Assembly (NCBI GenBank): GCA_910578475.1
Contig: CAJTRK010000008.1
Location: 31,082-95,081 of the forward strand
DNA: 64,000 bases
Source of the DNA: an uncultured Lachnospiraceae bacterium
Lineage (GTDB): Bacteria; Bacillota; Clostridia; Lachnospirales; Lachnospiraceae
Direction: 5' to 3'
Position 1 is the first letter of the stretch. Each line of letters starts with the position of its first letter. The translations under genes were made by a program, and so were the position numbers. Below, piece after piece: positions 9,721 through 59,416 of the stretch. Below the pieces are notes generated by a model. That model was not told where the DNA came from, searched no databases, and saw only the letters and a list, made by a program, of their open reading frames with translations.

Positions 9721-9751
9721 CGGCAAGGATGCCGTAAAAAATTCAAGGAGG
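9721..9751 (+). promoter_or_regulatory. Two CsrA-binding-type GGA sites in the flagellin 5-prime leader
   Basis: Site 1 is CGGCA-AGGA-TGCCG (9721-9734), with GGA in a 4-nt hairpin loop and a core CAAGGATG that matches the CsrA SELEX core CARGGAUG. Site 2 is CAAGGAGG (9744-9751), overlapping the Shine-Dalgarno sequence. Confidence 0.65.
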
Positions 9752-9759
9752 AATATAAT

Positions 9760-12008: not shown

Positions 12009-12062
12009 GGCGGATGTCTCCTTTTTATTCTTGATGGTGCGGCATCGGTACACCGTATATGT

Positions 12063-13130: not shown

Positions 13131-13146
13131 GATAAAATCCTTTCTT

Positions 13147-16312: not shown

Positions 16313-16555
16313 GTAAAAAACAATGCCATCCTCTCTGATTTTTCAATATGGCTTTTATGAATAACAGTATAGCAAAACTTTGGGGGTTTGGGAAGTGTGA
16401 GAAAGACGCTTTGTATTGACAGAACGAAAGTTATTCTATAAAGTATATATATCTTATTAATATAGTTAATATAAATATTTTTGGCAGGTAAATTCGGCGT
16501 TAAAGCATTTCAGACGCCGTCCTGATTTACGGGTTGACAAGAATGGAGGATTACG

Positions 16556-17272
16556 GTGAATATTGCAATGATTTTGGCAGGCGGTACGGATAACCGCTTT
16601 CAGATGAGCGTCCCGAAACAGTTCGTGAACGTATATAACCGTCCGGTAATTGTCTATACGCTGGAAGCGTTTCAGAAGCATGATGAAATCGACGCAATTA
16701 TGGTTTCCTGTCTGGACGGCTGGCAGGAAATGGTCAGAGCTTACGCGAAGCAGTTCAATATCAGCAAATTAAAATGGATTGTTTCCGGCGGCCGGGACGG
16801 ACAGGCTTCCGCGCGGAACGGTATTCTGGTACTGAAAGACGAATGCCGCGGGGATGATATCGTTGTCCTTCACGATTCCATAAGGCCCTTTGTTTCGGAG
16901 GAAATTATTACCGATAGTCTCAAAGTATGCAGGGTGCACGATATGGGAGTGGCGGCTGTGCGGACGATGGACACGATTATGCGGACGAACGACGGTATGG
17001 TGGGAACGGAAAGTATTTCCCGCTATTCGATTATCCGTATTCAGACGCCTCAGGCATACCGGATGGACCGGTTATGGGATATACACGAAAAAGCGATAGA
17101 AAAAGGAATCACCGGTGAAGTAGATACCAACAGTGTGATTTCGAGACTTGGAGAACCTGTTTATTTTTCAAAAGGCTCCGACCTGAATATGAAGATTAAT
17201 ACGGTAGAAGACGTGGAGATGTTCAAAGCATTATATAAGATGCGGCAGGAAGCGGAGAAGGAAAAAGCATAA
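16556..17272 (+). CDS. IspD/TarI-family cytidylyltransferase, copy 1
   Basis: IAMILAGGTDNRFQMSVPKQFVNVYNRPVIVYTLEAFQKH resembles the N-termini of TarI (ribitol-5-P cytidylyltransferase) and IspD. GTG start with GGAGG upstream. The glycine-rich loop reads GGTDNR rather than GGxGxR. Confidence 0.7.
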   Translation: MNIAMILAGGTDNRFQMSVPKQFVNVYNRPVIVYTLEAFQKHDEIDAIMVSCLDGWQEMVRAYAKQFNISKLKWIVSGGRDGQASARNGILVLKDECRGDDIVVLHDSIRPFVSEEIITDSLKVCRVHDMGVAAVRTMDTIMRTNDGMVGTESISRYSIIRIQTPQAYRMDRLWDIHEKAIEKGITGEVDTNSVISRLGEPVYFSKGSDLNMKINTVEDVEMFKALYKMRQEAEKEKA

Positions 17273-17368
17273 AGTTATATGATAAGAATATAGGTAAAAC
17301 TGACAATATCAAAAACACTGAAAGTTCTTAAATCCAAAAGAATGCAGAGGGACAAGGCTGAAAATCAC

Positions 17369-17447
17369 AGATTGTCAATCTTTGAAAGGAGCATGTTTAA
17401 GATTGAAAATTATAATTTTCAAAGATTGAAAATAAAGATTTTCAATC
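17369..17447. repeat. Nested palindromes and direct repeats built on GATTGAAAAT
   Basis: AGATTGTCAATCT (17369-17381). The palindrome TTGAAAATTATAATTTTCAA (17403-17422). GATTGAAAAT-aaag-ATTTTCAATC (17424-17447). Half-sites start at 17403, 17415, 17426 and 17438, so they are 11-12 bp apart. Confidence 0.6.
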
Positions 17448-17522
17448 GCGAGATTTGTGTCTGCGCGCTGCTTGCCACAAACTCGTTTATGCGCAAAAAG
17501 CAGCGCAGAAATGGAGTTAAAA

Positions 17523-18233
17523 ATGAATATAGCGCTTTTATTGGCCGGCGGCAGCGGAACAAGGACAGAGCAGGACGTTCCGAAACAGTTTTTTAACGTA
17601 TATGAAAAACCAATCATAATTTATACGCTGGAAGCATTTCAGAAACATCCGGACATTGACGGCATCATCGTGTCCTGCCTTGAAGGCTGGCACGAGATTT
17701 TGAGCGCTTATGCGAGGGAAGCGGGCATTACAAAACTGCGGAAAGTCGTCTGCGGCGGTGAGAACGGACAGGCTTCTGCCAGGAATGCGCTGCGGGAGTT
17801 AAAAGACATCTGCGGGGAGGACGATGTCGTTATCATACACGATGCCATACGACCGATGGTCTCTGCGGAAATCATATCCGACTGTATTGTGAAATGCAGA
17901 CAATATGGTTCCGGTCTTGCGGCAATGCGCTGCCAGGAAACGATTGTCGAGACAAACGACGGTATTAAAGGCGATACGGGCATCAGCCGGAATCATATCA
18001 TGCGGGTTCAGACGCCCCAGGCATATAAGTACGGAACTGTGATGAACGCTCATGAAAAGGCGTTGGAGCAGGGCATTACGAATGCGGTTTATACCAATAC
18101 GCTGATGCTGGATTTGGGAGAGACCCTTTATTTTGCGCAGGGCTCCGAGAAGAATCTGAAGATTACTACAATGGAAGATGTGGAGATTTTCAAGGCGCTG
18201 CTTCGGATGAAGAAGGAGGACTGGGTGAAGTGA
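17523..18233 (+). CDS. IspD/TarI-family cytidylyltransferase, copy 2
   Basis: MNIALLLAGGSGTRTEQDVPKQFFNVYEKPIIIYTLEAFQKH. It is collinear with copy 1. The ATG at 17523 follows GGAG, so the track start at 17457 is unlikely. Confidence 0.75.
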   Translation: MNIALLLAGGSGTRTEQDVPKQFFNVYEKPIIIYTLEAFQKHPDIDGIIVSCLEGWHEILSAYAREAGITKLRKVVCGGENGQASARNALRELKDICGEDDVVIIHDAIRPMVSAEIISDCIVKCRQYGSGLAAMRCQETIVETNDGIKGDTGISRNHIMRVQTPQAYKYGTVMNAHEKALEQGITNAVYTNTLMLDLGETLYFAQGSEKNLKITTMEDVEIFKALLRMKKEDWVK

Positions 18234-19246
18234 GCGGGGAAACTGAAGTATTTTCGAATTTCATATCATTGGGTTCAGCCTGTCAGACCGCGTCATCGAT
18301 GGAAAAATACGGATTAAGAGGCTGGTCGGGTCCTTTCGACTGGCTGGTCACTGACAGCCTGCAATGGGTACTGCATTACATGGAAACGGATTTTGCAGAT
18401 TTTCTGAAAAAGGAGAATCTGGAGCGCTGTCAGGAAAATCCAAAGACTTTTGTTGAAAGAAAAAGTGGGTTTATCTTTCGCCATGACCATGAATATCCGT
18501 TTGAGGATAAGTATGACAAATTAAAAGAAAAATATCAGAAAAAAATTGACCGGTTTCAAGAAGAAACGGTAAAGAAAACCTGTTTTCTCCGCACGGTCAT
18601 CAGTTCGGATGAAGTAAAATATATTGCCCGGAATTATGAATATATAAACGATATTATCAAAAGAAAGAATACCGAAAACGAAATTATTTTCTTATTGAGA
18701 CCGGACGCAGTAATCTGTGAACCGATTCCATTCCGGTATTATGTGATGCCAGGAAAGTGGAATGGCGGGCCGAACGCGGTCATCAGGAGCTGGTTTGACG
18801 GTGCGGATGAATTTCTGGAATATTGTATACGGCGTTATGATGTGATGACGCTCATGAAAAACATTGTATTTGACAGGAATAAACAGGAGAAAACATTTCA
18901 TAATACACAGACAAGATACCAGACATTACTGAAATTGACAGATTGTGATTTCCAAAAGATAGAAGTTCCTGAAAGCATTATTATCTATGGCGCAGGAAAC
19001 ATCGGCAGAAAATTTTATGAAAAAATAAAGGGAAAGTGTCATGTGGAGTGCTTTGTTGATAAAGACTGCGCAGGTAAAAGCATAGACAAAATACCGGTGC
19101 TGAAGCTGGAAGAAGCCGGAAGAGGAGAAAAGTTAATCTATATCGTTACGCCGACATATGATTTTCAGAAGATATATGAGGATATAAAAGCGCACGATGA
19201 CAGCGCGGAAATTATCTCATTAGACAGTATTCTGGGAAAAAACTGA
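18230..19246 (+). CDS. DUF1796-like (putative papain-like fold) protein with a C-terminal Rossmann-like module
   Basis: The N-terminus FISLGSACQTASSMEKYGLRGWSGPFDWLVTD resembles the DUF1796 signature. The C-terminus IIIYGAGNIGRKFYEKIKGKCHVECFVDKD...IPVL is the recurrent module. Its start overlaps the upstream stop. Confidence 0.5.
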   Translation: MSGETEVFSNFISLGSACQTASSMEKYGLRGWSGPFDWLVTDSLQWVLHYMETDFADFLKKENLERCQENPKTFVERKSGFIFRHDHEYPFEDKYDKLKEKYQKKIDRFQEETVKKTCFLRTVISSDEVKYIARNYEYINDIIKRKNTENEIIFLLRPDAVICEPIPFRYYVMPGKWNGGPNAVIRSWFDGADEFLEYCIRRYDVMTLMKNIVFDRNKQEKTFHNTQTRYQTLLKLTDCDFQKIEVPESIIIYGAGNIGRKFYEKIKGKCHVECFVDKDCAGKSIDKIPVLKLEEAGRGEKLIYIVTPTYDFQKIYEDIKAHDDSAEIISLDSILGKN

Positions 19247-19266
19247 ATGGATAAGAGGGAACAAAA

Positions 19267-20310
19267 ATGTCTGAAAAAAGCAATTGGCAGTTATTCTGTC
19301 AAAAATTGGATGATGTATTAAAAGAAACTTTGGATAAAGATATTATTATTTTTGGAAGCAATCCAGGCGGGGAATTTGTCAGGTGGTTTTATGAAACTTT
19401 TTATCACAAACAGGTAACGGCAGTAGTAGACCGTTGGAATCTGGATACCCATTATCAGGTGCACCATTTGATGTCATTGTACTATTTATGGACGGAGAAG
19501 GCCGTTATTATAAACACATTACCTGAGGATATCGGGCCGGAGAAAGAATTTAATGCGATAGGAGAAAACTGGGAGCGGACGGCATGGAAAAAAGAACAGA
19601 TTGTACCTCTTTATAAGGAAATTTTCGAGGAGGGGGGGGCAAGTAAGGACAGATATATAACATTTTACGACTGGCTGGAAGCAGAGCTTTCCTTAGATAT
19701 TTTAACATCTGTTCGAAGAGCCGATGTAAAAGGGAAAGAAAGTCACGGATACTATCCGACAGATTTTAGAATGATTTTGGAAGCGGCCGATACCGGCATA
19801 TTCGATAAGGATGCCGGCATCATGGATTTTGGATGTGGAAAGGGCGCGGCGATGATGGCGCTCAGAAATTGCGGATTTCGAAAAATTGCGGGAATTGAAT
19901 TTACAGATAGCATTTATGATATTATGTGTGATAATTTCAAAAAATCAGGGTATTGTGTAGAAAAGTGTACGAATGAGACAGTTCATAAAGAAGGCTTGCG
20001 TGAGGATATGTTTTATTGTTATTCGGGAGACGCGTCGGCTTTAAAAGAGGAGCTGGATAATTATCAGAATTTTTATTTCTTTAATCCGTTTTCTTATGAA
20101 TTGACAAGAAGGGTTCTGGGAAATATACTGGACAGCCTGGAACGAAAGCCGAGAAAGATGGCAGTTTTTTATGCAGAACCTATGTGCCACAGCATAATCA
20201 TGCAATCCGGTAAATTTGAACTTGTAAAGAAAATAGACAGATTTTTGGGCGGGGCAACTTATAGCGCTTATCTATATGAAACTTTTTATGATAGAAACTT
20301 TTGTCAGTGA
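19267..20310 (+). CDS. Class I SAM-dependent methyltransferase with an N-terminal Rossmann-like module; contains an in-frame G8 tract
   Basis: IMDFGCGKGAAMMALRNCGFRKIAGIEF is a motif-I type SAM-binding loop. The N-terminus reads IIIFGSNPGGEFVRWF...VVDRWN. The G8 tract lies at 19632-19639. Confidence 0.6.
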   Translation: MSEKSNWQLFCQKLDDVLKETLDKDIIIFGSNPGGEFVRWFYETFYHKQVTAVVDRWNLDTHYQVHHLMSLYYLWTEKAVIINTLPEDIGPEKEFNAIGENWERTAWKKEQIVPLYKEIFEEGGASKDRYITFYDWLEAELSLDILTSVRRADVKGKESHGYYPTDFRMILEAADTGIFDKDAGIMDFGCGKGAAMMALRNCGFRKIAGIEFTDSIYDIMCDNFKKSGYCVEKCTNETVHKEGLREDMFYCYSGDASALKEELDNYQNFYFFNPFSYELTRRVLGNILDSLERKPRKMAVFYAEPMCHSIIMQSGKFELVKKIDRFLGGATYSAYLYETFYDRNFCQ

Positions 20311-20370
20311 TATCCATATTAACAGCATGGTAATGTATGATAAAGCGGATGAAAGGAAAGTGAGGATACA

Positions 20371-22602
20371 ATGGTAAGAAGAGACATAACACAATTGGCT
20401 GTATGTGAGACACAACAGGAATTGGACAGTGTTCCTTTTGAGTGTTTGAGAAAATTTTATTTAGACAAGACATCGGAAATTATTTATTTTACAAAAGAGA
20501 AAAAGCTTTATGGGATTGTATGTACGCGTGAGGCGGTTAGCGGCAAAGATATTATAACAATTAATAAGTCTTTTACGGTTTTACAGGAAGGTGATATTGT
20601 AAAAGCCTGCAGAACATTTCAGTCAAGAAAAACAAGGATACATAAAATACCCATTGTCAACGCGCAGGGGGAATTAGTCGGCGATTATTCCAGTTGGGAC
20701 GATATGCTTTATATTGAAAGAAATCGAAACAGGTTAATGCGGAAAGAATCTGTAAAAAAGGTATTGGGAATCTATCATAAAATATACATGGTGAAATCCA
20801 TTGCCGAAAAGCTTCCGGTTTATATCCAACTGACAGGTTATTTAGAGCGTTTTGGCATTGAATATTTGCCATTGGATAAAGAGCAGATTGCAGGGAAGCT
20901 GTCAGAGAAGGCCTGTTTTATCTTTGTGGATGAGGATGAGAGAAGGGGAACAGAGTGTCTGTTCCAAATTGAACCTTGTTTTTATGATATTCGGGGAAAG
21001 TACATTTACGAATATGATATGCTGGCAAGTGCATTTGATAACTTAAAGTTCGTGACGTACAAAAGCCTGATGGTGCAGATAATGTACAATAATCAGTTTG
21101 AAACATTACAGGTGAAAAAGCCTGACAGTGTATATAGTGATTTGGTAGACGATAAAGTTTCATTTTTACTATCGGCATTGAATAAACGAGGCGTGAATTG
21201 TTTTTGTATATATAATTTTGAGGATAAAGATGTAATATCTGATTATTGTAAAGAATTTCAGAATGAAGTAAAAGAAAGAATGGCTAAATTTCCCAGAAAG
21301 CTTAAAAAGCCCTGGCCGCAAAAAGATGAAAATCCGGATTTTTTTGATGATTTATATCAAAATCCGGATTATGAAAAAGAAATTGTACAGAGAGAGACTT
21401 TTTTTCAGCTGACTGCATATGAGTATAAAAATGGCATTGAAGGTAAATACTGCAATGCAAAAAATGGCAGAAGGGTAACCTGCTTTCAGCCTGAAGAATA
21501 TATTGGAACAATCTATACTTTTGGCAGATGTATGATGTTAGGAGTATATGCGGAAGACCAGAATGCAATTACAAGTATTTTGCAGAAAAAGCTGATGGAA
21601 GCCGGATACGCATATCGGGTAGAAAATTGTGCAGATATGGTGAGGGCAGACTGTTCCATCGATGAAAGATTGCGTGAAATAGGTAAATTTAACCAAAATG
21701 ATATTATTGTTTTCTTTTCATCGCCGCCACACAGGTGTGTTGGTATACAAGGGATAGCATTAGAGCAAATTTTTGAAAAACATCAGATTCCAAGTACATG
21801 GGTAGAAGATACGGAATATGGACATTGCAATCATAAGGCAAATCGGATTATAGCTGATGAAATTTTGGAAATGGTAAAGCCCTGCCTTGTAAATAAACCG
21901 GAAACAAACGACAGAGAAGTGCAGTTTTGTATTCACGAAGAAATGAAGAATTATGTGTATCATAGATATATAGAACATTATTTTTCAGATTTTGCCGGTG
22001 GGAAATATGCTTCGGTTGGCGCAATCGTTATGGATTGCGACCCTTTTAGTATTGAGCACCGTTATTGGATAGAATGGGCAAGCAGACAGGTTGAGTTTTT
22101 AATTTTATTCATATTCGAGAGAGACGTGTTAACATTTTCTTTTGAAGAACGATATAAGATGGTCATAGAAGGAACAAAGGATATCGATAATATTATGGTT
22201 GTACCGAGTGGAGCGTGTATTCTTTCCGATGTAACGTTTCTGGAGTATTTTTCTGGAGATAAAAATGCGGTGATATATAATGCCAGAAATGACCTTAATG
22301 TATTTGCGGATTATATTGCGGAACTTCTTCATATTACACATCGCTTCGTAGGGAATGAAACAGAGCGGGAGAGCGTGAAAATTTATAATGAAGAGATGAA
22401 ACGGATTTTGCCGCAAAAGGGAATCAGTTGTGTTGAAATGCCGGCAATGCCGCAGGGTCAAGCTGTCTGTGCGCCTAAAGCAATAAGGTATTTAAGAAAT
22501 AAGGAATATGATAAAGCGTTTGAACTGCTTCCGGAAACAACTCAAAAATATATTATGAATCATCTTTATTTAACGGAAGAACTGAAAAGTCAGGCAGAAT
22601 GA
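20371..22602 (+). CDS. 743-aa multidomain protein: CBS-like N-terminus, an unknown central region and a CitC-type (citrate lyase ligase-like) nucleotidyltransferase/ligase C-terminal domain
   Basis: The C-terminal GAIVMDCDPFSIEHRYWIEWASRQVEFLILFIF...SFEERYKMVIEGTKDIDNIMVVPSGACILSDVTFLEYF...THRFVGNE aligns by eye with E. coli CitC (GAIVMNANPFTLGHRYL...LHLF...THRFVG). The N-terminal GELVGDYS-type segment looks CBS-like. Confidence 0.6.
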   Translation: MVRRDITQLAVCETQQELDSVPFECLRKFYLDKTSEIIYFTKEKKLYGIVCTREAVSGKDIITINKSFTVLQEGDIVKACRTFQSRKTRIHKIPIVNAQGELVGDYSSWDDMLYIERNRNRLMRKESVKKVLGIYHKIYMVKSIAEKLPVYIQLTGYLERFGIEYLPLDKEQIAGKLSEKACFIFVDEDERRGTECLFQIEPCFYDIRGKYIYEYDMLASAFDNLKFVTYKSLMVQIMYNNQFETLQVKKPDSVYSDLVDDKVSFLLSALNKRGVNCFCIYNFEDKDVISDYCKEFQNEVKERMAKFPRKLKKPWPQKDENPDFFDDLYQNPDYEKEIVQRETFFQLTAYEYKNGIEGKYCNAKNGRRVTCFQPEEYIGTIYTFGRCMMLGVYAEDQNAITSILQKKLMEAGYAYRVENCADMVRADCSIDERLREIGKFNQNDIIVFFSSPPHRCVGIQGIALEQIFEKHQIPSTWVEDTEYGHCNHKANRIIADEILEMVKPCLVNKPETNDREVQFCIHEEMKNYVYHRYIEHYFSDFAGGKYASVGAIVMDCDPFSIEHRYWIEWASRQVEFLILFIFERDVLTFSFEERYKMVIEGTKDIDNIMVVPSGACILSDVTFLEYFSGDKNAVIYNARNDLNVFADYIAELLHITHRFVGNETERESVKIYNEEMKRILPQKGISCVEMPAMPQGQAVCAPKAIRYLRNKEYDKAFELLPETTQKYIMNHLYLTEELKSQAE

Positions 22603-22628
22603 TTTACATTATAAGGAGGATGGAAACA

Positions 22629-22862
22629 ATGGAAGAGAGAATATTAAAAATATTGGAAGAACAGTGTGAGGAAGTATTGGATTATGATGGTGATAATATG
22701 ATGGAAGACGGCGTCATAGATTCTTTTACTGTTCTGGATATAATAAATGGCTTAGAAGAAGAATTTGATATCGAAATCGATGCAGATTATGTAATAGCGG
22801 AAAACCTAAAAAATAAAGATACAATTATTGCATTGGTCAGAAAAGTGTTGGCGGAAAATTGA
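22629..22862 (+). CDS. Acyl/peptidyl carrier protein (ACP/DltC-like, 77 aa)
   Basis: GVIDSFTVLDIINGLEEEFDIEIDADYV corresponds to the ACP DSL(D)TVELV..LEEEF phosphopantetheine-attachment helix. The candidate Ser codon is at 22722-22724. AAGGAGG lies 9 nt before the ATG at 22629. Confidence 0.7.
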   Translation: MEERILKILEEQCEEVLDYDGDNMMEDGVIDSFTVLDIINGLEEEFDIEIDADYVIAENLKNKDTIIALVRKVLAEN

Positions 22863-23074
22863 CGAGTTTATACATCGGAAGAGAAAAAGAGCCCGAACGC
22901 TTAGCAGTAATTATAAATACTCTGCCCAATAATTTAGGACCTGAGAATGAATTTGGTAATATAGGAGAGGTATGGGAGCGGACAGCATGGAAAGATGAAC
23001 AGATTATATCATTGTATGAAGAAATTTTTCCAAACAGCAGATTTGGGATATGGGCAAGTTTTATATATCACTAA
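22859..23074 (+). pseudogene. Remnant of a paralogue of the 19267..20310 methyltransferase gene
   Basis: AVIINTLPNNLGPENEFGNIGEVWERTAWKDEQIISLYEEIF aligns with AVIINTLPEDIGPEKEFNAIGENWERTAWKKEQIVPLYKEIF (19489-19640). It has no plausible start or RBS and lacks both flanking domains. Confidence 0.6.
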
Positions 23075-23098
23075 TATTATTTGATATGCTGCCGATAT
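23072..23098 (+). promoter_or_regulatory. Candidate sigma-D-like promoter inside the island
   Basis: TAAT (23072-23075), a 15-nt spacer, then GCCGATAT (23091-23098). The -10 is an 8/8 match to consensus and the -35 matches 3 of 4. Confidence 0.4.
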
Positions 23099-23151
23099 AT
23101 ACTTTAGCAAGGATTGCGATAGTGTTGCACGGAGGCAGAATAGCATTGAGT

Positions 23152-23196
23152 AAAACCTGTTATGCGTGTATTAATGCAATAACAGGTTTTTGTTTA
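23152..23196 (+). terminator. Intrinsic-terminator-like hairpin in the 200-nt gap before the TagF-like gene
   Basis: AAAACCTGTTAT, a 15-nt loop, then ATAACAGGTTTT, followed by TGTTTAT. The stem is a perfect 12 bp. Confidence 0.6.
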
Positions 23197-23273
23197 TGTT
23201 AATTGAATTCACAGTCTGATATGAGCATTTCACAATCACCTGATTCAAATTTAATAAAAAGGAACGGTATTTT

Positions 23274-25844
23274 ATGCGTAAGTTTCAGAAACAGCAGTTG
23301 TTAGATATTATTACAAGCCTGCATATTCTTCATCAGGAGAGTAAGGAAAAATTTGAGGAGAAAGATTATCCGACAATCCGTACAGCGCTGGCTGACTCTC
23401 AGGAAGCGGCAATTCAACTGGGTGAGGCTATTGAGAGAATGACGGGGAACGGAACAAAGGCGGTTGAATGTCTGGAAAAATACTGCGAGAAACTGTATCA
23501 GATAAGCATACAATTGGAAGAAATCTCCGCACAGAAGTTTTATAAGTCTTTAGAAGGCATATTGATAAAGGCTGAAAATGAAATTAATCATATTCCGGTT
23601 AGAAAAGAAATCGTATTCCTGCCGTACAAGGCGAGTATGTGGGATTCCCTGGAAAGTGTTTATCTGACAGCTAGAGAAGATAATAACTGTGATGTCTATG
23701 TTGTGCCGATTCCTTATTATGACAGAAGGGCTGACGGGAGCCTGGGGGAACTGCACTATGAAGGAAGCGAATATCCGAAGGATATAGTTATTACTGATTA
23801 CAGAGCGTATAATCTTGAAGAAAGACACCCGGATGTTATTTATATACATAATCCTTATGATGGCTGGAATAACGTAACCTGTCTGCCGGAATATTATTTT
23901 TGTAAGAATTTGCGAAATTTTACCGATTGTTTAGTGTATATACCTTATTTTATATTGGATGAAATAGAACCGAATGATAAAAACGGCGTGGAGAAGATGA
24001 AGCATTTTTGTTTTCTCCCAGGGGTTATATATTCACATAAAGTTATTGTGCAGTCTGAAAAGATGCGTCAGATTTATATTAACGAGTATGCCAGACAGGC
24101 AAAGGCACTTGGTTTGCCGGTTGATATGAAAGCGCTGGAAGAAAATATTTATGGGATTGGTTCACCGAAGCTTGATAAGGTACATAGCGTAAAGAAGGAT
24201 GAGCTGGAAATCCCGGCCGAGTGGCTCGGGATGATAGAGAAGCCTGACGGTTCATGGAAAAAAATAATTTTTTATAACACGAGCATTAACGCATTATTAA
24301 AATCTGATGAGAAGATGCTGGAAAAGATGCAGTCAGTGTTTGCATATTTTAAAGAAGTGCAGGAAGATATAACTCTTTTGTGGCGGCCGCATCCTCTGAT
24401 ACCAAATACGATTAAATCTATGAGACCTGTATTATGGGACAAATATAAGAAAATCGTAGAAAGATACAGGCAGGAAAACTGGGGAATCTATGATGACAGT
24501 TCCGATATGGACAGAGCCATAGCGCTCAGCGATGGGTATTATGGGGATTACAGCAGTATTGTACATTTGTATAAGGAAACAGGAAAACCGATTCTTCTGC
24601 AGGATGTAAATGTTACTTTTGAAAATTACGCAAAGGGGAGTAACTTATTTGTATCCAGTCCTATGTGGAATATAGAGAATAATAAGGCATGGTTTGTAAG
24701 TGAAGAATACAATATGCTGTTTTATGCCGAAATGGATACTGCCCAATGTGAGTTTGAGGCTGCGATACCGTACAAAGGCAGACGAGCATACAGAATGACG
24801 CCAAGATGTATGAAATGCGGCGACTGTATTTTTTGTATGCCGGATGATGGCGAATGTATAATGGTTTATCAGTGCAGCAGTCGGGAATTTTATGAGATTG
24901 AAATCGATAATCCCGATAAAGTGCGTCTTGGCATCGCCTATTTTTGGATGTATGAAGATAAGATATTTGCATTTTCCATAGGACTTAAAAAACTGATAGA
25001 GATAGATATCAGCCGAAGGAAAATAAATCATTATTTTTCATTCGATGTAAGTATAATGCCAGCCATAGAAGTGGCGGGAACGGAAATATACAGCCTTTTG
25101 AATCAGTCGGGATGTATTATATGCTTTGATATGATGAAAAAGGAAAGCATTTCATATATGCTGCCGGACATCGGAAAAGAATTTTATACACTTAGTTTCG
25201 ATGGAGAGAAGTTTTGGATGAGCGGCGCCTGTAAAGAAGTATATATTTGGAACAGAGAGGAAAATACAATTGAAACCATTGGGGGATTTCCTCCGGACTT
25301 TGGGATTTATAAAACTGTTGATAACGGAAACGGCGAAGAAATTGTTTTGGATTGTGAGAGCGAAGAATATGATGTGTGTGCATTTGCATATTCGATTGCC
25401 GCGGAAGGATATATATGGTTAATACCCTGTTGGACGAATAAGATATTGTATGTCAATCAAAATACATATGAAGTTAAAGCTTTGGAGATAGAGCATGAGG
25501 AGGAAACGGCATTAAGCGTAAAGAGAAATAATTTTTTCAGCGGCAGGTATATCCTGGAATATGTCAGGGAAAACCGATACATAGGGCTTTATTCCTATAA
25601 AAACAGATGTGTTTTTGAAATAGATGCCAGAGAAATCAATGTAAAGGAATATAACTATTATTTTAGCGAAGCGTGTTTACGGGAAGTGAAAAGTGCTGTT
25701 GCAGAAGAAAATACAGTTTATGAAAATAATATGCTTAATCTGACGAATTATTTTAATCAGCTGTTAGAGGATGATACAGCAAATGGCGGAACAGATTATG
25801 AAAATGCCGGAATAAATATCCATAAAGAAATGATGAAATACTGA
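23274..25844 (+). CDS. TagB/TagF-family (CDP-alditol phosphotransferase-like) protein with a C-terminal extension of about 400 aa of unknown fold
   Basis: The 856-aa product has IVFLPYKASMWDSLESVY, VIYIHNPYDGWNNVT, LVYIPYF and IGSPKLDK, which resemble the TagF-family core. The C-terminal half is Cys- and aromatic-rich and repetitive (possibly a beta-propeller). Assignment is from motif memory only. Confidence 0.5.
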   Translation: MRKFQKQQLLDIITSLHILHQESKEKFEEKDYPTIRTALADSQEAAIQLGEAIERMTGNGTKAVECLEKYCEKLYQISIQLEEISAQKFYKSLEGILIKAENEINHIPVRKEIVFLPYKASMWDSLESVYLTAREDNNCDVYVVPIPYYDRRADGSLGELHYEGSEYPKDIVITDYRAYNLEERHPDVIYIHNPYDGWNNVTCLPEYYFCKNLRNFTDCLVYIPYFILDEIEPNDKNGVEKMKHFCFLPGVIYSHKVIVQSEKMRQIYINEYARQAKALGLPVDMKALEENIYGIGSPKLDKVHSVKKDELEIPAEWLGMIEKPDGSWKKIIFYNTSINALLKSDEKMLEKMQSVFAYFKEVQEDITLLWRPHPLIPNTIKSMRPVLWDKYKKIVERYRQENWGIYDDSSDMDRAIALSDGYYGDYSSIVHLYKETGKPILLQDVNVTFENYAKGSNLFVSSPMWNIENNKAWFVSEEYNMLFYAEMDTAQCEFEAAIPYKGRRAYRMTPRCMKCGDCIFCMPDDGECIMVYQCSSREFYEIEIDNPDKVRLGIAYFWMYEDKIFAFSIGLKKLIEIDISRRKINHYFSFDVSIMPAIEVAGTEIYSLLNQSGCIICFDMMKKESISYMLPDIGKEFYTLSFDGEKFWMSGACKEVYIWNREENTIETIGGFPPDFGIYKTVDNGNGEEIVLDCESEEYDVCAFAYSIAAEGYIWLIPCWTNKILYVNQNTYEVKALEIEHEEETALSVKRNNFFSGRYILEYVRENRYIGLYSYKNRCVFEIDAREINVKEYNYYFSEACLREVKSAVAEENTVYENNMLNLTNYFNQLLEDDTANGGTDYENAGINIHKEMMKY

Positions 25845-25850
25845 GAAGGT

Positions 25851-26996
25851 ATGACAATGAGAGTGGTAATTTTAGCAGATGCAGACAGTATTTATTGTAA
25901 GGAATATATAGAGTATGTTCTTCTGGAGAAATATGAAGTACTGATTATAACCGGCTGTAATAAAAGATATCGTCAGTATTACAGGGAGAACGGTGTAAAA
26001 GTGCTTATCTGGATGCCGCCGCAGACACTGGAAGAAAGACTTGCGGACAGAATTTCGGACAAAATAAGACGTGATGATATATTTCATGTGCATTATGTAG
26101 AACCGCGTATTTTGAAATATTTCTGGAAGCCCTGGATAAAGTGCAGGAAACGCATACTGACATATTGGGGGAGCGACTTGCTCAGGCTTCCGCTTAAACA
26201 GATACGTTCTATGTGGCCATTTATTTATACTGCCAATGATATTATCGTGATGGATAATCATATGCGCAGAAAAATGAAGGCAGTAGTGTCAAAGCGGAAA
26301 TGGAACAGCGTAAAAAGCATTCCGCTCGGGATTCCGATGTTTGATACAATTGATGAAGTGTCAAAACGGATGTCTGTAAATGCGTGTAAACAGCATTTTG
26401 AACTGCCTGTTGATAAAATCATTGTATCGGTCGGGTATAATGCAGCCCGTGAACAGCAGCATTTGGAAATGATGCGAGAGGTAGTGAAGCTGCCGGAAGA
26501 ACTTTTAGATAAGATGTTTTTTGTATTTCATTTTGGTTACGGCGCAAAAGATACAGCTTATTGCAGGCAGTTATATAAACTGATGGAAGAAAACAATGTA
26601 CCTTATAAAGTACTGGAACAGTTTTTGGATAAGCATGAAACATCTGTTCTGCGGTTGAGCACAGACATCTTTTTATATGGACAGACTACGGATGCGATGT
26701 CGTCGAGCGTACTTGAATGTTTATATGCAGGCGCAGTATTGATAAAGCCGCAATGGCTTGACTATTCGGAGTTAAAAGGGATTAGCTTTTATGAGTATCA
26801 GCAGTTTGGTGAAATAAACGGCATTCTTGAAAATTTAATAGAAAAGGGCATAGACAGGATGCCGCAGAACAGGAAACCACTTTGGGAACAACAGTCATGG
26901 GATGTGCTTGTGCCGAGATGGAAAGCATTGTATAAGGAGAAAGCAAATGGCAAACGAAGAGGAAAGGTACATATGGCTAAACGGAGATATCGTTAA
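25851..26996 (+). CDS. Hypothetical protein, possibly a GT-B-fold glycosyltransferase
   Basis: MRVVILADADSIY...VLIITG, ILTYWGSDLL and SSSVLECLYAGAVLIKP look weakly GT4-like. Its 3-prime end overlaps the next gene by 50 nt. Confidence 0.3.
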   Translation: MTMRVVILADADSIYCKEYIEYVLLEKYEVLIITGCNKRYRQYYRENGVKVLIWMPPQTLEERLADRISDKIRRDDIFHVHYVEPRILKYFWKPWIKCRKRILTYWGSDLLRLPLKQIRSMWPFIYTANDIIVMDNHMRRKMKAVVSKRKWNSVKSIPLGIPMFDTIDEVSKRMSVNACKQHFELPVDKIIVSVGYNAAREQQHLEMMREVVKLPEELLDKMFFVFHFGYGAKDTAYCRQLYKLMEENNVPYKVLEQFLDKHETSVLRLSTDIFLYGQTTDAMSSSVLECLYAGAVLIKPQWLDYSELKGISFYEYQQFGEINGILENLIEKGIDRMPQNRKPLWEQQSWDVLVPRWKALYKEKANGKRRGKVHMAKRRYR

Positions 26997-27882
26997 GGTT
27001 GGGGATGCGAAGATAAACGTATTGGCTCCAACGGCTCAGTTTGGCGCAAATGTTTTTGAGGGAATCCGGTGCTATTTTAGTGAAGCAGGAAATCAGCTCT
27101 ATGCGTTCAGGCTGGAGGAACATTATAAGCGCTTACAGAACTCGGCAAAACTGTTTCGAATGAAGTGCCCTTATTCAACGGAAGAGCTGAAACATTTTAT
27201 GATAGACGTCGTTAAGGCCAATGGATATCGTGAAGACATTGCGGTCAGGCAGACACTATTTGTAGACGGATATGGGAGCTGGTTTTCCAGGGAACCGGTA
27301 GGTATGTTTATTGCGCCGATAGCGAAAAAAAGAATTGCCAATCCAATTGTGAAAGGAGAAAAAACCTGTGTGAGTTCATGGGAAAGAATCAGTGACAGGG
27401 ATATGTCTCCGAGAATCAAGGTAGGTGCAAACTATATTAATAGCAGGATGGCGAAGCTGGAGGCCATGGATAATGGATATGATTCGGCGTTGTTTTTAAA
27501 CAGACAGGGATTTGTGGCAGAAGGGACCGGTTCATGTTTCTTTATTGTAAAAGGCGGTTCATTGATAACGCCGATGCTGACAGATTCTATTCTGGAGAGC
27601 ATTACAAGAGATACGATAATGAAACTGGCGCAGAATGAACTCCATATGCCGGTGGTGGAACGGCATATGGACAGAACGGAATTATATACCTGTGACGAGG
27701 CCTTTTTCTGTGGCTCCGCAGTAGAAGTAACACCGGTTGTTCAGATAGACAGTCATGTGGTCGGAACCGGGAAGCCGGGAGAATGGACACAAAGAATTCA
27801 TAAACTGTATTTGGACGTGGCGACAGGCGAATATGAGAAATATACGAACTGGCTGACTCCGATATATGATTCACGTTCATAA
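26947..27882 (+). CDS. Class IV (branched-chain / D-amino-acid) aminotransferase
   Basis: [38 protein letters not shown] aligns with E. coli IlvE [45 protein letters not shown] lies before the ATG at 26947. Confidence 0.8.
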   Translation: [311 protein letters not shown]

Positions 27883-27914
27883 ATTAATATCATCAGGTAA
27901 AAGGAGAAGAAAGT

Positions 27915-28736
27915 ATGCCGTTAAAAATGATGTATATAACAAATAAGCCTAAGGTAGCGCAAATTGTAGAAAGACACCATGTGGAACGTATATGGGTGGA
28001 TTTGGAAATAAGAGGAAAAGTCGAGCGTCAGCATGGAAGAAATTCGGTGATATCAACTCATACGATAGAAGATGTGAGCGCTATTAAGAATAGTCTTTCC
28101 GTTGCAGATTTAATGGTAAGGGTAAATCCTGTTTTTGACGGCTCGCGCAAAGAGATAGATGAGTGTGTAAGAAGAGGCGCCGACATCATTATGCTTCCAT
28201 TTTTTACAGAGGCGGAAGATGTAAAAAAATTCCTCGATTATGTGGATGGCAGGGCCAGAACGATTTTGCTCGTGGAAACAATCGGCGCGGAAAAAAATCT
28301 GGAGGAAATATTAGCTTTAAAGGGCATTGATGAGGTACATATTGGATTGAATGATTTGCATATTCAATATAAAAATAAGTTTATGTTTGAACTGCTTTCT
28401 AACGGCAAGGTAGAAGAAATAACCGATAAAATTAAAAAAATCGGCATTCCATATGGTTTTGGAGGAATTGCGCGACTGGATGACGGGCTGCTTCCGGCAA
28501 GACATATTATCGCGGAACATTACCGGTTAGGCTCTTCGATGGCAATATTATCCAGAAGTTTTTATGATACATGGATATCTGACGATTATGAAGAAATCGA
28601 GAGAGCCTTTAAGTTCGGAATGCAAGAGATAAGAGAGTATGAGGAGCGCCTGGCGCATGAAACGCCGGAGTTTTTTGAAAATAACCGTAAGACAGTGATG
28701 GAAGAGGTTCAGGCCGTTTTGGATAAAATAGGCTGA
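27915..28736 (+). CDS. HpcH/HpaI aldolase / citrate-lyase-beta (CitE) family protein
   Basis: RIWVDLE, LMVRVNP, GADIIMLPFF...ED, ILLVETIGA and GIDEVHIGLNDL follow the HpcH-family TIM-barrel pattern. Confidence 0.55.
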   Translation: MPLKMMYITNKPKVAQIVERHHVERIWVDLEIRGKVERQHGRNSVISTHTIEDVSAIKNSLSVADLMVRVNPVFDGSRKEIDECVRRGADIIMLPFFTEAEDVKKFLDYVDGRARTILLVETIGAEKNLEEILALKGIDEVHIGLNDLHIQYKNKFMFELLSNGKVEEITDKIKKIGIPYGFGGIARLDDGLLPARHIIAEHYRLGSSMAILSRSFYDTWISDDYEEIERAFKFGMQEIREYEERLAHETPEFFENNRKTVMEEVQAVLDKIG

Positions 28737-28789
28737 GAAGCCGTTCCCTGACAGAATACAGGACTGGAAAAAGAGTATGGAGGTAGGTC

Positions 28790-30007
28790 ATGTTAGATTC
28801 ATATAAACAGTTAAAGGCAGCGGCGGATGAACATGGAGATGCTTTCTATATCCTGGACAGTCGATTGTTCGAACAGAATTATGACGACATGCTGTCCGCA
28901 TTCTGTTCCTATTATCCGAATACTCATATTGCATATTCATATAAAACAAATTATATGCCGAAACTTTGCAGAATAATTCAGGAAAAGGGCGGATATGCGG
29001 AGGTAGTGTCCGAGCTGGAATGGCAGCTTGCCGTGAAAACGGGAGTAAAGCCGTCGGATATATATTATAACGGGCCGTATAAGAAAAAAGAATATATTGA
29101 AAAATGTCTTCTTTCGGGTGTCCATATCAATCTGGATTCCATGTATGAAGTTGAAATTGTTGCGGAAATTGCGAAAAGGAACAGGGACAGGAAATTGGAG
29201 GCAGGCATAAGATGTAATGTGGATATCGGCCAGGATGAACCGTCCCGCTTTGGGTTTTATACACAGTCAGGAGAACTTGTCGGAATTGTGCGGAAACTGA
29301 ACGATTTGGGAAATGTAAAAGTAACGGGCCTGCATTGTCATTTACCATTTCGTTCGTTGGACTCTTTTAAGGAACGCGTCCGCATTATGTATACAATACT
29401 GGAACAGTTTCCGGAATACGAATGGTCCTATTTGAGCTTTGGCGGCGGATATATGGGAAAGGTAGACGAAGAAATGGCCAGGACATTTGCATTTGTGCCG
29501 CCAACATACGAGGATTATGCACAGGTCGTTGCGGGTGGGATGAAAGTGTTTTTTGAAAACCGGCAGCATAAACCGAAACTCATCATAGAGCCGGGCAGCG
29601 CACTGGTCGCTGATACCATGAAATATGTAACACGGGTGGTAGATATTAAATATGTAAGGGATAAATATATCGCTACGCTTTCCGGAAGTATTTATAATAT
29701 GAATCCTTCCACAAAGGGAATTAAACGTCCCATCGCCGTATATTCGGACAAACAGCAGGAACATTTCTATGAGAACGTGGATATGGCGGGATATACATGT
29801 ATCGAGTCGGACTATTTGTATAGAGGCTATCAGGGAAATCTGTCCCGGGGGGACTTTGTTGTATTCCATAACGTCGGCTCATACAGTCTTGTTATGAAAC
29901 CCCCGTTCATTCTGCCGGATGTTCCGTGCCTGGAAGAGGATGGAGAGAAGACTGTAATTGTGAAAAAGAAACAGCGTGAAGAGAGTATTTTTGCGGATTT
30001 CATATGA
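28790..30007 (+). CDS. PLP-dependent decarboxylase, Orn/DAP/Arg decarboxylase family (fold type III)
   Basis: DAFYILDSRLFEQNY...HIAYSYKTNYMPKLCRII...GGYAEVVSELEW contains a Lys equivalent to the YAxKAN PLP lysine. FGGGY and EPGSALV are also present. Confidence 0.7.
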   Translation: MLDSYKQLKAAADEHGDAFYILDSRLFEQNYDDMLSAFCSYYPNTHIAYSYKTNYMPKLCRIIQEKGGYAEVVSELEWQLAVKTGVKPSDIYYNGPYKKKEYIEKCLLSGVHINLDSMYEVEIVAEIAKRNRDRKLEAGIRCNVDIGQDEPSRFGFYTQSGELVGIVRKLNDLGNVKVTGLHCHLPFRSLDSFKERVRIMYTILEQFPEYEWSYLSFGGGYMGKVDEEMARTFAFVPPTYEDYAQVVAGGMKVFFENRQHKPKLIIEPGSALVADTMKYVTRVVDIKYVRDKYIATLSGSIYNMNPSTKGIKRPIAVYSDKQQEHFYENVDMAGYTCIESDYLYRGYQGNLSRGDFVVFHNVGSYSLVMKPPFILPDVPCLEEDGEKTVIVKKKQREESIFADFI

Positions 30008-30059: not shown

Positions 30060-31004
30060 ATGAGTGACAAGAAGCTGGTTACGCAGATTATGTGCTATTA
30101 TAACGAAAAAAAATATTTAGGAGACGCCATTCGCAGTATATTGGCTCAGAGCTATGCCAATTGGGAGCTGATTCTGATTGACGATGGCTCTACGGATGGA
30201 AGCCATGAAACAGCGGAATCATTTCAGGATGACAGAATTATACATGTTTCCAATAAAGAAAATCATGGACTGGCATGGTGCCGCAATCAGGGATTATCGC
30301 TGGCGAAAGGAGAATATATCGGCTTTGTAGATGCTGACGATATAGCACGCAAGGACAAACTAAAAAAAATGGTCGATTATCTCGATTCTCACGAAGATGT
30401 TCTGGTATTAAGCGGAGGATGTATTTATATAGACAAATATGGAAATAAGCTGTCACAAAGAGAAGGGATTATTTGTGAAGACGCAGATATCAGAGCATAT
30501 ATGCTGTTTGGAAACTGTATGGCGGGTCCCTGTGCTCTTTTCCGGAGAGCGGTAATTGATAAGTATCATATAGCGCATGATATTGTTATGCGGACTTCAC
30601 AGGATTATTTTTTCTGGCAGAAATGTCTTCGCCATGGAAAATTTTATAATCTGGAAGAGCCGTTGTTTTATTATAGGATTGGGCATAACTCCCAGAGCAA
30701 CAGGACGGTTAAACGCGACCCTGAAAAGAATCAGAATATTTTACTGAAAATTCTTCATTACGCATGGCGTTCAAGGGGCTTTCGATTGAATCGAGGGGAT
30801 ATTACTTATATATACAGATATATATATCATCAGGAGCGGTTTACATCTTTCAATGATTATATAAAAGGATATAAATTGTATCGCAAAATAAAGAAACAGG
30901 AGTCCGGGTTAAACCTGCCGGAAGGTTCTCAAATTTTAGCTCTGTACAAAGAATTTTTGAAAAAACACATGAGGAATGATATAAAGCACATAGCAGTTTT
31001 ATAA
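30060..31004 (+). CDS. Family-2 glycosyltransferase
   Basis: VTQIMCYYNEKKYLGDAIRSILAQS, LILIDDGSTDGS and FVDADD. Confidence 0.8.
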   Translation: MSDKKLVTQIMCYYNEKKYLGDAIRSILAQSYANWELILIDDGSTDGSHETAESFQDDRIIHVSNKENHGLAWCRNQGLSLAKGEYIGFVDADDIARKDKLKKMVDYLDSHEDVLVLSGGCIYIDKYGNKLSQREGIICEDADIRAYMLFGNCMAGPCALFRRAVIDKYHIAHDIVMRTSQDYFFWQKCLRHGKFYNLEEPLFYYRIGHNSQSNRTVKRDPEKNQNILLKILHYAWRSRGFRLNRGDITYIYRYIYHQERFTSFNDYIKGYKLYRKIKKQESGLNLPEGSQILALYKEFLKKHMRNDIKHIAVL

Positions 31005-36808: not shown

Positions 36809-36812
36809 TAGT

Positions 36813-59414: not shown

Positions 59415-59416
59415 GA

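Follow-up and report, generated by a model that had tools for sequence, protein, structure and literature searches.

Three independently mobile cassettes, one joining TarI-type cytidylyltransferases to a TagF-like putative transferase, in a flagellin glycosylation island of a mouse-gut Lachnospiraceae bacterium

Mosaic organization of the gene block

The 64,000-nucleotide stretch of an uncultured Lachnospiraceae bacterium studied here (contig CAJTRK010000008.1, positions 31,082 to 95,081 of the forward strand), referred to below as the window, contains a 13.5-kb gene block (positions 16556-30007 of the window) that is a mosaic of three separate, independently mobile cassettes, not one pathway. 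Cassette I comprises two paralogous TarI/IspD-type cytidylyltransferases, TarI1 and TarI2, a DUF1796 protein and a TagF-like putative phosphotransferase using cytidine diphosphate (CDP) alcohols. Cassette II encodes a methyltransferase-like protein, a CitC-type ligase and a small carrier protein, and cassette III a GT-B-like protein followed by an aminotransferase, an aldolase-like protein and a decarboxylase (the latter three are the trio below). The block is part of a flagellin glycosylation island of ~50 kb in this bacterium of the mouse gut, within one long plus-strand transcription unit. All genes named in the first-pass annotation of this DNA are present, exactly where it placed them or a few codons away, but its list omitted the DUF1796 gene (18230), the methyltransferase-like gene (19267), a gene remnant (22904-23029) and the GT-B-like gene (25851), and it overlooked the CitC-like ligase (20371) and the carrier protein (22599) in the middle of the block.

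When metagenomes were scanned with the GT-B domain of the TagF-like protein, 80 loci were recovered. TarI1-type, TarI2-type and TagF-like genes are contiguous in ten loci besides the window (L014, L018, L021, L022, L030, L042, L043, L047, L073 and L074), with the TarI pair and the TagF-like gene in either order and with TagF-like proteins of about 450 amino acids (aa). The TarI genes and the TagF-like gene are the only families common to all cassette I loci, and in L030 and L073 the cassette is situated directly beside flagellin genes. This contiguity, with several loci beside flagellin, bears out the proposal of the first-pass annotation that the cytidylyltransferase pair and the TagF-like protein act on a CDP-activated phospho-unit, and, as far as gene content can tell, it supports cassette I being a phosphodiester-decoration unit that combines CDP-polyol synthesis with polyol-phosphate transfer.

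The key comparison is with L014, also from Lachnospiraceae, where TarI1 (97% identity), TarI2 (94%) and the DUF1796 gene (82%) are followed directly by the gene of a 448-aa TagF-like protein (71%) without a propeller. Since cassette II is absent from L014, a 42-codon remnant of a second methyltransferase gene of the 19267 type is present in the window, and cassette II occurs separately in L005 and L007, cassette II is an insertion into cassette I. The remnant (22904..23029, plus strand) marks the insertion boundary just upstream of the TagF-like gene; it shares 74% identity with residues 79-120 of the 19267 product (tblastn, E 2e-18) and is annotated as a 71-aa gene in public gene calls.

Cassette III is equally separable from cassette I. 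Its aminotransferase, aldolase-like, decarboxylase and GT-B-like genes are found in none of the 80 TagF-like loci, and no flagellin, TarI or TagF-like gene is situated near the trio in any of the five loci from other genomes that carry it (L011, L012, L013, L096 and L097, all of them polysaccharide loci). Moreover, no kinase adjoins cassette III. As cassette III recurs without TarI and TagF-like genes and is missing from the TagF-like loci, the link between the trio and CDP activation, by which, in the first-pass annotation, the trio might build the CDP-activated moiety, is unsupported.

Proteins identical to the products of the block occur on 125-358 public contigs, assigned, where named, to metagenome-assembled Lachnospiraceae bacteria, and thus the genes of the block are real; the closest genome record is MGBC110096 from a mouse gut catalogue. 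A promoter-like site (16416-16444) precedes the first gene, TarI1, and no terminator-like site exceeds the shuffle expectation from 15.8 to 31.2 kb. An Rfam scan of the whole window gave zero matches to RNA families.

The cytidylyltransferase pair

TarI1 (16556..17272, plus strand) and TarI2 (17523..18233, plus strand) are 55% identical to each other. Both match the Pfam IspD family (PF01128; E-values 8e-35 and 4e-35) with scores of 121-122 bits against a cutoff of 27, the matches spanning positions 2-220 of the 221-position model, and the best solved relatives of both copies are the TarI enzymes (CDP-ribitol synthases) of Streptococcus pneumoniae (2vsh, 4e-28), Bacillus subtilis (4jis) and Staphylococcus aureus (6xhp). 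The Pfam matches, the mutual identity and the TarI structures agree with the initial description of the two proteins as IspD/TarI-type paralogs.

The phosphate loops of the two copies differ, being ILAGGTDNRF in TarI1 and LLAGGSGTRT in TarI2. In an alignment of ten TarI1/TarI2 ortholog pairs, the canonical GG[SHCT]G[TVSNA]R loop is kept in TarI2 and all its orthologs, whereas TarI1 and all its orthologs have a GGxDx loop in place of the canonical GGxGxR(M), with Asp replacing the third Gly. In three TarI1 orthologs (L021, L022 and L074) the loop Arg is replaced as well, by Gln, Asn or Gly. Hence the divergence of the first copy, already noticed in the first-pass annotation, goes further than a single gene, the Gly-to-Asp replacement being fixed in the whole TarI1 lineage. 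Orthologs are 57-97% identical to the window copy for TarI1 and 62-94% for TarI2; as TarI1 is as conserved as TarI2, it is not decaying.

TarI and IspD enzymes work as dimers, in which residues of both subunits contribute to the active sites. Given this sharing of residues and the conservation of TarI1, the most economical reading, to which we assign even chances, is that TarI1 and TarI2 form a heterodimer with one canonical site. TarI2 is the presumed catalytic subunit, and TarI1 is probably a non-catalytic partner or one altering the specificity.

The spacer between the two genes (17273-17522) is 250 nt long in the window; L014 has 87 nt and most of the other cassette loci have 5-37 nt, and in L018 the pair is separated by a 211-aa open reading frame (ORF). 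The spacer of the window contains nested palindromes of GATTGAAAAT/ATTTTCAATC, clustered at positions 17370..17447 (no strand assigned), and a GC-rich hairpin, CTGCGCGCTGCTT...AAGCAGCGCAG. These repeats may have been left by a small insertion, or may act as an operator or internal regulatory site.

The DUF1796 gene (18230..19246, plus strand; Pfam 2.9e-18), whose start overlaps the stop codon of TarI2 by 4 nt, is an accessory member of cassette I. Its product has a predicted papain-like Cys/His fold and a C-terminal small Rossmann module with the motif YGAGNIG. Among cassette loci, the gene is present, in the same position, in L014 and missing from the others; in L015 it occurs without TarI. 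A scan of the genome collection with DUF1796 returned two loci only, one of them L014.

The TagF-like protein

The TagF-like gene (23274..25844, plus strand) encodes an 856-aa protein with a helical N-terminus (residues 1-105), a GT-B domain (106-462) and a C-terminal beta-propeller (~465-800). The AlphaFold2 model of the whole protein has a confidence (pLDDT) of 83.5, and a separate model of residues 106-462 alone reaches 84.7. A Foldseek search with the full-length model returned only beta-propellers; with residues 106-462 all top matches were GT-B enzymes (E ~1e-7, TM score ~0.5), which is not decisive for TagF. Residues 440-856, proposed for profiling in the first-pass annotation, proved to be largely the propeller in both the model and the structural search, with the GT-B domain lying upstream.

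The family is large (more than 5000 members in the search). PF04464 (Glyphos_transf), the Pfam family of TagF, is the only Pfam family recurring across the relatives of the window protein, as it matches 27 of the 45 relatives scanned (counted at E < 0.01-0.1), made up of 14 of the 28 full-length relatives (best 6e-9) and 13 of the 17 stand-alone ones (best 2e-6). Members of the family associated with TarI cluster partly in the tree.

TagF enzymes have a GT-B fold with two invariant catalytic His residues, one per subdomain, about 130-140 residues apart (PMC5974469, PMC10901376); the pairs H444/H584 in TagF and H300/H433 in TarL, together with five active-site motifs, define the family (PMC5974469, PMC10901376). 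In the TagF-like family of the window, H192 (in IHNPYD) and H373 (in WRPHP) are invariant and H244 is conserved in at least 90% of the sequences. Counted along the sequence of the window protein, the distances are 129 residues for H244-H373 and 181 for H192-H373. The GT-B fold is shown by the model, and membership in the TagF family is plausible. The putative use of a CDP-alcohol donor with release of cytidine monophosphate (CMP) is supported by the adjacency to the TarI-type pair in ten loci.

Cassette II

The first gene of cassette II (19267..20310, plus strand) encodes a methyltransferase-like protein with an N-terminal small Rossmann module and the class I S-adenosylmethionine (SAM) motif FGCGKG; it weakly matches Methyltransf_23 and carries a G8 tract (19632-19639), discussed below. 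It is followed by the gene of a 743-aa CitC-like protein (20371..22602, plus strand) that starts with a CBS-like region, continues with a conserved middle domain (~255-547) and ends in a CitC-type adenylating domain (549-728). The latter gives a full-length match to the Pfam family Citrate_ly_lig (9.5e-43). The match to the CitC model TIGR00124 (3e-39; 134.8 bits, cutoff 262.1) covers only model positions 139-330, and thus the protein is not a full-length CitC; its N-terminal 548 residues are a family-specific region unlike the N-terminal GNAT-like domain of CitC.

The carrier protein (22599..22862, plus strand) has 87 aa (77 aa in public gene calls, which start at 22629) and contains a serine in a DSF motif. 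All models match it below their cutoffs: the best NCBIfam match is to DltC (7e-7; 29.1 bits, cutoff 68), acyl carrier protein models behave likewise, and the Pfam PP-binding domain scores 18.7 bits (2e-3; cutoff 20.8). In L005 and L007 the CitC-like genes come with homologs of this protein (60-66% identity).

In other glycan islands of Lachnospiraceae (L005-L007), CitC-like proteins of 720-750 aa are encoded in one to four tandem copies, next to heptose, radical SAM, transketolase and carbamoyltransferase genes, and no TarI or TagF-like genes are found in these three loci. In distant relatives (P0523, P0507) the middle domain and the CitC unit are fused to RgpF or GT2 glycosyltransferases, which ties the CitC unit to glycan modification; the family is uncharacterized. 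We also considered cassette II as an analog of D-alanylation acting on the polyol phosphate, which is unsupported, as TarI and TagF-like genes are missing from the CitC-like loci. A common citrate theme, under which the CitC-like ligase would belong with the HpcH/CitE-like protein and the N-citrylornithine-decarboxylase-like enzyme, was rejected, since cassettes II and III are separate in other genomes.

Cassette III

Cassette III begins with a GT-B-like gene (25851..26996, plus strand) with an N-terminal Glyco_trans_4_2 domain (Pfam 9.9e-8); relatives of its product weakly match GT56. The aminotransferase (26947..27882, plus strand) is an IlvE-type branched-chain (fold type IV) enzyme (Aminotran_4, 7e-47). 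It exceeds the cutoffs of both IlvE equivalog models (304.6 against 279 for NF005146, 286 against 245.55 for TIGR01122), and its best match in PDB is the branched-chain aminotransferase (BCAT) 6h65 (6e-78), compared to 1e-25 for D-amino-acid aminotransferase.

The next protein (27915..28736, plus strand) resembles class II (metal-dependent) aldolases/lyases of the HpcH/HpaI family (HpcH_HpaI, 40.1 bits, cutoff 25). Its similarity to solved members is very low (best E 2.7e-4 by profile), and the family to which it belongs has over 8000 matches, many at 65-70% identity. Residues R69, E121 and D147 are invariant in 19 sequences, with the role of Arg assigned by position only; E121 and D147 align with the Glu of VES and the Asp of ADL in YfaU, the metal ligands of that enzyme.

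The decarboxylase (28790..30007, plus strand) is a fold-III enzyme dependent on pyridoxal phosphate (PLP), from the Orn/DAP/Arg family (Pfam 4e-28), and is an optional member of the cassette. The best matches in PDB are N-citrylornithine decarboxylase (7kh2, 9e-28), diaminopimelate (DAP) decarboxylases and BtrK, the decarboxylase of carrier-protein-bound glutamate (2e-13). The enzyme classes named for the trio in the first-pass annotation are therefore correct, all three domains having been recovered.

A GT2 glycosyltransferase (30060-31004, plus strand) and a SAM-dependent methyltransferase (31061-31849, plus strand), both identified by Pfam, travel with cassette III. In L012, L096 and L097, syntenic homologs of the GT-B-like gene (29-36% identity) precede the BCAT gene, and homologs of the GT2 gene (34-49%) directly follow the trio; in L096 a homolog of the methyltransferase (45%) follows too. 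The gene order in L096 and L097, that is GT-B-like, BCAT, HpcH, (methyltransferase), decarboxylase, GT2 and then methyltransferase or GT11, is the one of the window segment 25851-34398, and the surroundings of these two loci include ABC exporters and acyltransferases. L012 and L013 lack the decarboxylase, and L011 has BCAT, HpcH and decarboxylase genes. As for precedents, a route with an HpaI-type aldolase and a branched-chain aminotransferase yields gamma-hydroxy amino acids such as 4-hydroxyisoleucine, and pairs of HpcH-like proteins and fold-III decarboxylases are known from siderophore clusters (SbnG/SbnH, AcsB/AcsE).

Proposed mechanism and alternative explanations

The best overall explanation, whose probability we put slightly above one half, is a mosaic of three cassettes that would add a polyol-phosphate unit, an acyl unit and an amine unit to the flagellin glycan. 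In cassette I, TarI2 would condense cytidine triphosphate (CTP) and an alditol phosphate, similar to ribitol-5-phosphate, into a CDP-polyol, with TarI1 as its partner subunit in the heterodimer. Through the cytoplasmic TagF-like GT-B enzyme, a hydroxyl of the flagellin glycan would then receive the polyol-phosphate of the CDP donor, with release of CMP; the propeller, which the enzyme of the window has and most cassette copies lack, is probably where the acceptor docks. In cassette II, the CitC-type ligase would most likely adenylate a carboxylic acid and pass it as a thioester to the carrier protein for acyl decoration of the glycan. Cassette III would work independently of cassette I: most likely, pyruvate (or another 2-oxo acid) and an aldehyde would be joined into a gamma-hydroxy-2-oxo acid, transamination of which would give a gamma-hydroxy amino acid, and decarboxylation would then yield an amino alcohol or amine ending up on a sugar. 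What the analysis shows are the gene families, folds, loop states, synteny and the independence of the cassettes; the substrates, the TarI1/TarI2 heterodimer, the acceptor and all catalytic steps of the scheme are inferred.

A number of observations weigh against this scheme. Neither cytidylyltransferase reaches the cutoff of the ribitol-5-phosphate cytidylyltransferase model NF001183 (145.1 and 139.6, cutoff 166) or of the IspD model TIGR00453 (154.2 and 165.8, cutoff 181.3). TarI1 may be catalytic with a different substrate, since it retains the lysines of the PKQF motif and of the C-terminal KI(N/T)T motif. The window TagF-like protein itself is below the PF04464 cutoff of 22.1 bits, scoring 19.3 bits (E 5.9e-4) as a whole and 21.9 bits as the GT-B domain alone. 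The top Foldseek matches of this domain are UDP-N-acetylglucosamine 2-epimerases, and Bcs3 (8a0c, a TagF-like-containing protein solved with CMP) has only rank 47, yet the highest identity, 15%. Searches of PDB sequences (whole-protein phmmer and two profile searches) found no TagF, TarL or Bcs3, giving weak YncE/WD40 propeller matches and nothing for the GT-B domain. Thus, the assignment of the protein to the TagF family in the first-pass annotation stands as to the GT-B fold and the recurrence of PF04464 among relatives, but the window protein falls short of the Pfam cutoff and has no TagF or TarL match in PDB. As to the context of the family, among the 32 TagF-like loci of at least 15 kb only eight carry the TarI pair, and the others have CMP-sugar-synthetase-like genes (seven loci), HldE-like genes (four), a single distant TarI or no detectable nucleotidyltransferase; three further TagF-like contexts show the same spread of neighbors. 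As the neighbors differ among these loci, the family as a whole probably uses several donors. For the other two cassettes, we identified no transferase moving the acyl group off the carrier protein and no ligase attaching the product of cassette III. Finally, literature searches on Lachnospiraceae flagellin glycans found no chemical description.

The alcohol is not defined by the locus. No zinc-type (medium-chain dehydrogenase/reductase) match indicating a TarJ-like dehydrogenase is present in any ORF scanned in the window, in line with the first-pass annotation, which had reported no TarJ/TagD-type partner. A further point against the scheme is that no reductase or kinase, ribulose-5-phosphate reductase included, is conserved beside the TarI/TagF cassette among the cassette loci; L009 alone has a short-chain dehydrogenase/reductase (SDR) gene adjoining its TarI gene. 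Other neighbors of the cassette vary by locus, including nonulosonic-acid, heptose, sulfate-activation and radical SAM genes. The lack of a conserved reductase or kinase suggests that the polyol is drawn from a metabolite already in the cell, and we propose a ribitol-5-phosphate-like polyol. A bolder version of the scheme, to which we give a low probability, is a teichoic-acid-like element on flagellin, in which the TarI heterodimer would activate a polyol phosphate from central metabolism (even 2-C-methylerythritol 4-phosphate, given that no dedicated reductase is present), the propeller-guided TagF-like enzyme would add one or several units, the CitC-like ligase and the carrier protein would, in this strain, esterify them in the manner of D-alanylation, and poly-G tracts in two methyltransferase genes would turn parts of the decoration on and off.

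The three cassettes have to be weighed against a unified pathway, where the amino acid or amino alcohol built by the trio would receive a phosphate, undergo CDP activation through the TarI-like pair and finally be attached by the TagF-like enzyme, in the way of N-methylthreonine phosphate in Clostridioides difficile. All genes of the block do lie on one strand, within 13.5 kb and with no terminators above chance, CDP-amino-acid donors of a TagF-like flagellin enzyme have an experimental precedent, and a choline-kinase-like domain is encoded in the island (51884). The separate distribution of the trio and cassette I, complete in both directions (0/80 and 5/5 loci, the former including the ten with the TarI pair), and the absence of an adjacent kinase argue to the contrary. 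Moreover, alditol phosphates are the substrates of the closest enzymes related to the two cytidylyltransferases, while C. difficile FtaB is described as a CTP:phosphocholine cytidylyltransferase-like protein, not as TarI/IspD (PMC10714395). A unified pathway therefore seems quite improbable to us. At the far end of the scale is the possibility that both cytidylyltransferases are ordinary IspD enzymes of the methylerythritol phosphate (MEP) pathway that are in the island by chance. Although IspD is the best NCBIfam model for both and also their public annotation, neither attains its cutoff, the pair is conserved beside TagF-like and flagellin genes with a non-canonical loop in one copy, and a scan of the window found neither IspF nor other MEP-pathway genes nearby, which makes this explanation extremely unlikely.

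Two other explanations, both of which we consider unlikely, concern the fate of the CDP-polyol and the chemistry of the transferase. The TarI pair might feed CDP-polyol mainly to the LicD-family protein encoded at 50650, or to both transferases, with the TagF-like enzyme using another donor. Fukutin and FKRP are LicD-family ribitol-phosphate transferases with CDP-ribitol as the donor. Both appear among the CDP-alcohol phosphotransferases listed in the C. difficile preprint (bioRxiv 10.64898/2026.02.12.704994), and in L009 the SDR reductase-like gene and then a LicD gene come after a TarI2-type gene (53% identity). Still, LicD in the window is 32 kb away from the TarI pair and has its own neighbors (a LicC-like/choline-kinase fusion, a second nucleotidyltransferase and a BCCT transporter), and only one of the ten loci where the pair adjoins the TagF-like gene, L021, has a LicD-like gene nearby; LicD as the main partner of the pair was rejected on these grounds. 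Alternatively, the 856-aa protein could be a GT-B glycosyltransferase, similar to sialyltransferases or 3-deoxy-D-manno-octulosonate (Kdo) transferases, that uses a cytidine-nucleotide sugar; the TarI-like pair would then make a CDP- or CMP-activated sugar-like donor, to be transferred without its phosphate. The generic GT-B character of its top structural matches, the Pfam TagF score below the cutoff, CMP-sugar-synthetase-like genes near family members in seven of the 32 long loci and an alpha-2,8-polysialyltransferase-like gene adjoining the homolog in L009 agree with such a role. Against it are PF04464 as the sole family matched repeatedly across relatives, the highest identity among structural matches shown by Bcs3, a capsule polymerase that transfers polyol-phosphate and was solved with CMP, and the known products of TarI/IspD enzymes, which are CDP-alditols and not nucleotide sugars. 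We thus retain polyol-phosphate transfer by the TagF-like enzyme as the preferred explanation for cassette I.

Other features of the island

Flagellar genes FlaG (5684), FliD (6163) and flagellin (9718-10818) precede the glycan genes. Downstream of flagellin there are about 50 kb of glycosyltransferase and sugar-nucleotide genes, up to ~60.5 kb, with one long plus-strand gene array from 16556 to ~58.3 kb. Both ends of the island are occupied by paralogous GT2-TPR glycosyltransferase genes on the minus strand, five in total (10959-14220 and 58302-60517), and two DUF3880/Glyco_trans_1_2 genes are located at 4184 and 15143; these GT2-TPR and DUF3880/Glyco_trans_1_2 proteins are likely flagellin-directed initiating enzymes.

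A phosphocholine-type module (50650-55760), situated 20 kb downstream of the block and overlooked in the first-pass annotation, includes genes for the LicD-family transferase (50650), a LicC-like nucleotidyltransferase/choline-ethanolamine kinase fusion (51884), another NTP_transf_3 protein (53506) and, at 54210, a choline/betaine transporter of the BCCT type. From this module, the flagellin glycan is predicted to carry a further phospho-linked group, distinct from the first.

The window contains only two G/C homopolymers of at least eight nucleotides (shuffle expectation 0.67), and both are inside SAM-methyltransferase genes. The G8 tract of cassette II (19632-19639) is G9 in the assembly L003, which splits the 19267-type gene into 126-aa and 236-aa products; such split products are present on 32 and 25 contigs, respectively, compared to 233 for the full-length 19267 protein. 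The G9 tract (43687-43695) splits the gene of a ~260-aa methyltransferase into ORFs 43276-43710 and 43685-44047. This suggests that glycan methylation is phase-variable by slipped-strand mispairing, as in Campylobacter, though a homopolymer assembly error may also explain it.

A radical SAM/SPASM enzyme (36798-37793) is encoded amid deoxythymidine diphosphate (dTDP) sugar genes, namely NTP transferase, RmlC, epimerase and 4,6-dehydratase. Related radical SAM genes are also carried by most related islands, which suggests unusual sugar tailoring.

The small Rossmann-like module mentioned above is present at 18960-19246, 19330-19440 and 50650-50900, as well as in many genes of L005, L008 and L009, being fused to diverse island enzymes: DUF1796, methyltransferases, LicD, GT2, WcbI and TOD1-like. 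In related loci it is named C2185-like_N by the public precomputed Pfam annotations; it has the glycine motif GAGNIG in the DUF1796 protein and, judged by eye, is PglD_N-like. The module may be a shared handle for binding nucleotides or acceptors.

Implications

Lachnospiraceae flagellins are among the most strongly recognized antigens of gut commensals, for example in Crohn's disease serology and in TLR5 signaling. The predicted phosphodiester-linked polyol on these flagellins is a concrete target for mass spectrometry. If the proposed mechanism is true, it would extend the logic of C. difficile Type A modification, a CDP donor and a TagF-like enzyme, to another cytidylyltransferase family and donor class, and TarI1 in its pair with TarI2 would be a new case of a pseudoenzyme that partners an active enzyme in nucleotide activation. 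For annotators, the three separable cassettes demonstrate that in mosaic islands gene neighborhood is insufficient for inferring a pathway.

Comparison with known systems

Literature searches for CDP-ribitol-type enzymes with flagellin, for DUF1796 and for HpcH with BCAT in polysaccharide clusters gave nothing relevant beyond the work on C. difficile. For the aldolase, aminotransferase and decarboxylase, the 4-hydroxyisoleucine route and the SbnG/SbnH and AcsB/AcsE pairs combine the same enzyme families, and the aligned metal ligands and Arg of the aldolase are conserved; unlike the siderophore clusters, cassette III lies between glycosyltransferases in glycan loci, with no synthetase of the NIS (nonribosomal-peptide-synthetase-independent siderophore) type.

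Cassette II resembles the CitC/CitD, DltA/DltC and BtrI/BtrJ/BtrK (butirosin) systems in having a CitC-type adenylating domain beside a small DltC-like carrier with a serine motif, and a BtrK-related decarboxylase is present in the same block. In contrast to these systems, the N-terminal region of the ligase is large and unique, the carrier scores below the cutoffs of all models, and no DltB/DltD, BtrH or other acyl transferase was identified in the block; moreover, the decarboxylase travels with cassette III and not with the carrier protein.

Cassette I shares several features with the wall teichoic acid machinery (TarI/TarJ, TarL/TarK/TarF and Staphylococcus epidermidis TagF). TarI enzymes are the closest solved relatives of the pair, and the window transferase resembles TagF in its GT-B fold and, weakly, in PF04464 similarity, and has conserved His residues in both subdomains that are candidates for the TagF pair. 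The differences are the missing TarJ, the absence of sequence matches to TagF or TarL from PDB and the predicted acceptor, which is a protein-linked cytoplasmic glycan here and a lipid-linked precursor in wall teichoic acid synthesis. The group 2 TagF-like capsule polymerases (Cps1B, Cps7D and Haemophilus influenzae Bcs3) similarly combine a TagF-like GT-B domain with extra domains and make polyol-phosphate glycans (PMC5974469), but they are multi-domain proteins with GT-A/GT-B partners and TPR, whereas the added domain of the window protein is a beta-propeller.

Further parallels are the Type A system of C. difficile (FtaA-D, CD0241-0244) and the b-type system of Pseudomonas aeruginosa (PA1088-1091). 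In both, flagellin is modified in the cytoplasm after glycosylation by the products of genes situated beside fliC, with a cytidylyltransferase making the CDP donor and a soluble TagF-like enzyme adding the phospho-unit to the flagellin sugar. In particular, the TagF-like FtaD of C. difficile moves the phospho-unit from CDP-N-methylthreonine to N-acetylglucosamine on flagellin (bioRxiv 10.64898/2026.02.12.704994). The analogy with C. difficile drawn in the first-pass annotation thus holds for the mechanism but does not extend to descent, in view of the different description of FtaB. The block differs from Type A in its TarI/IspD-type cytidylyltransferase, a conserved pair with one divergent member, in having no homolog of the FtaA-like phosphoserine phosphatase, and in the beta-propeller of the transferase; the predicted donor carries a polyol, not threonine. 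The logic of a CDP donor with a TagF-like enzyme is therefore known, and what is new in the system described here is the cytidylyltransferase family, the combination of a canonical copy with a degenerate one, the missing TarJ and the fusion of the transferase to a propeller.

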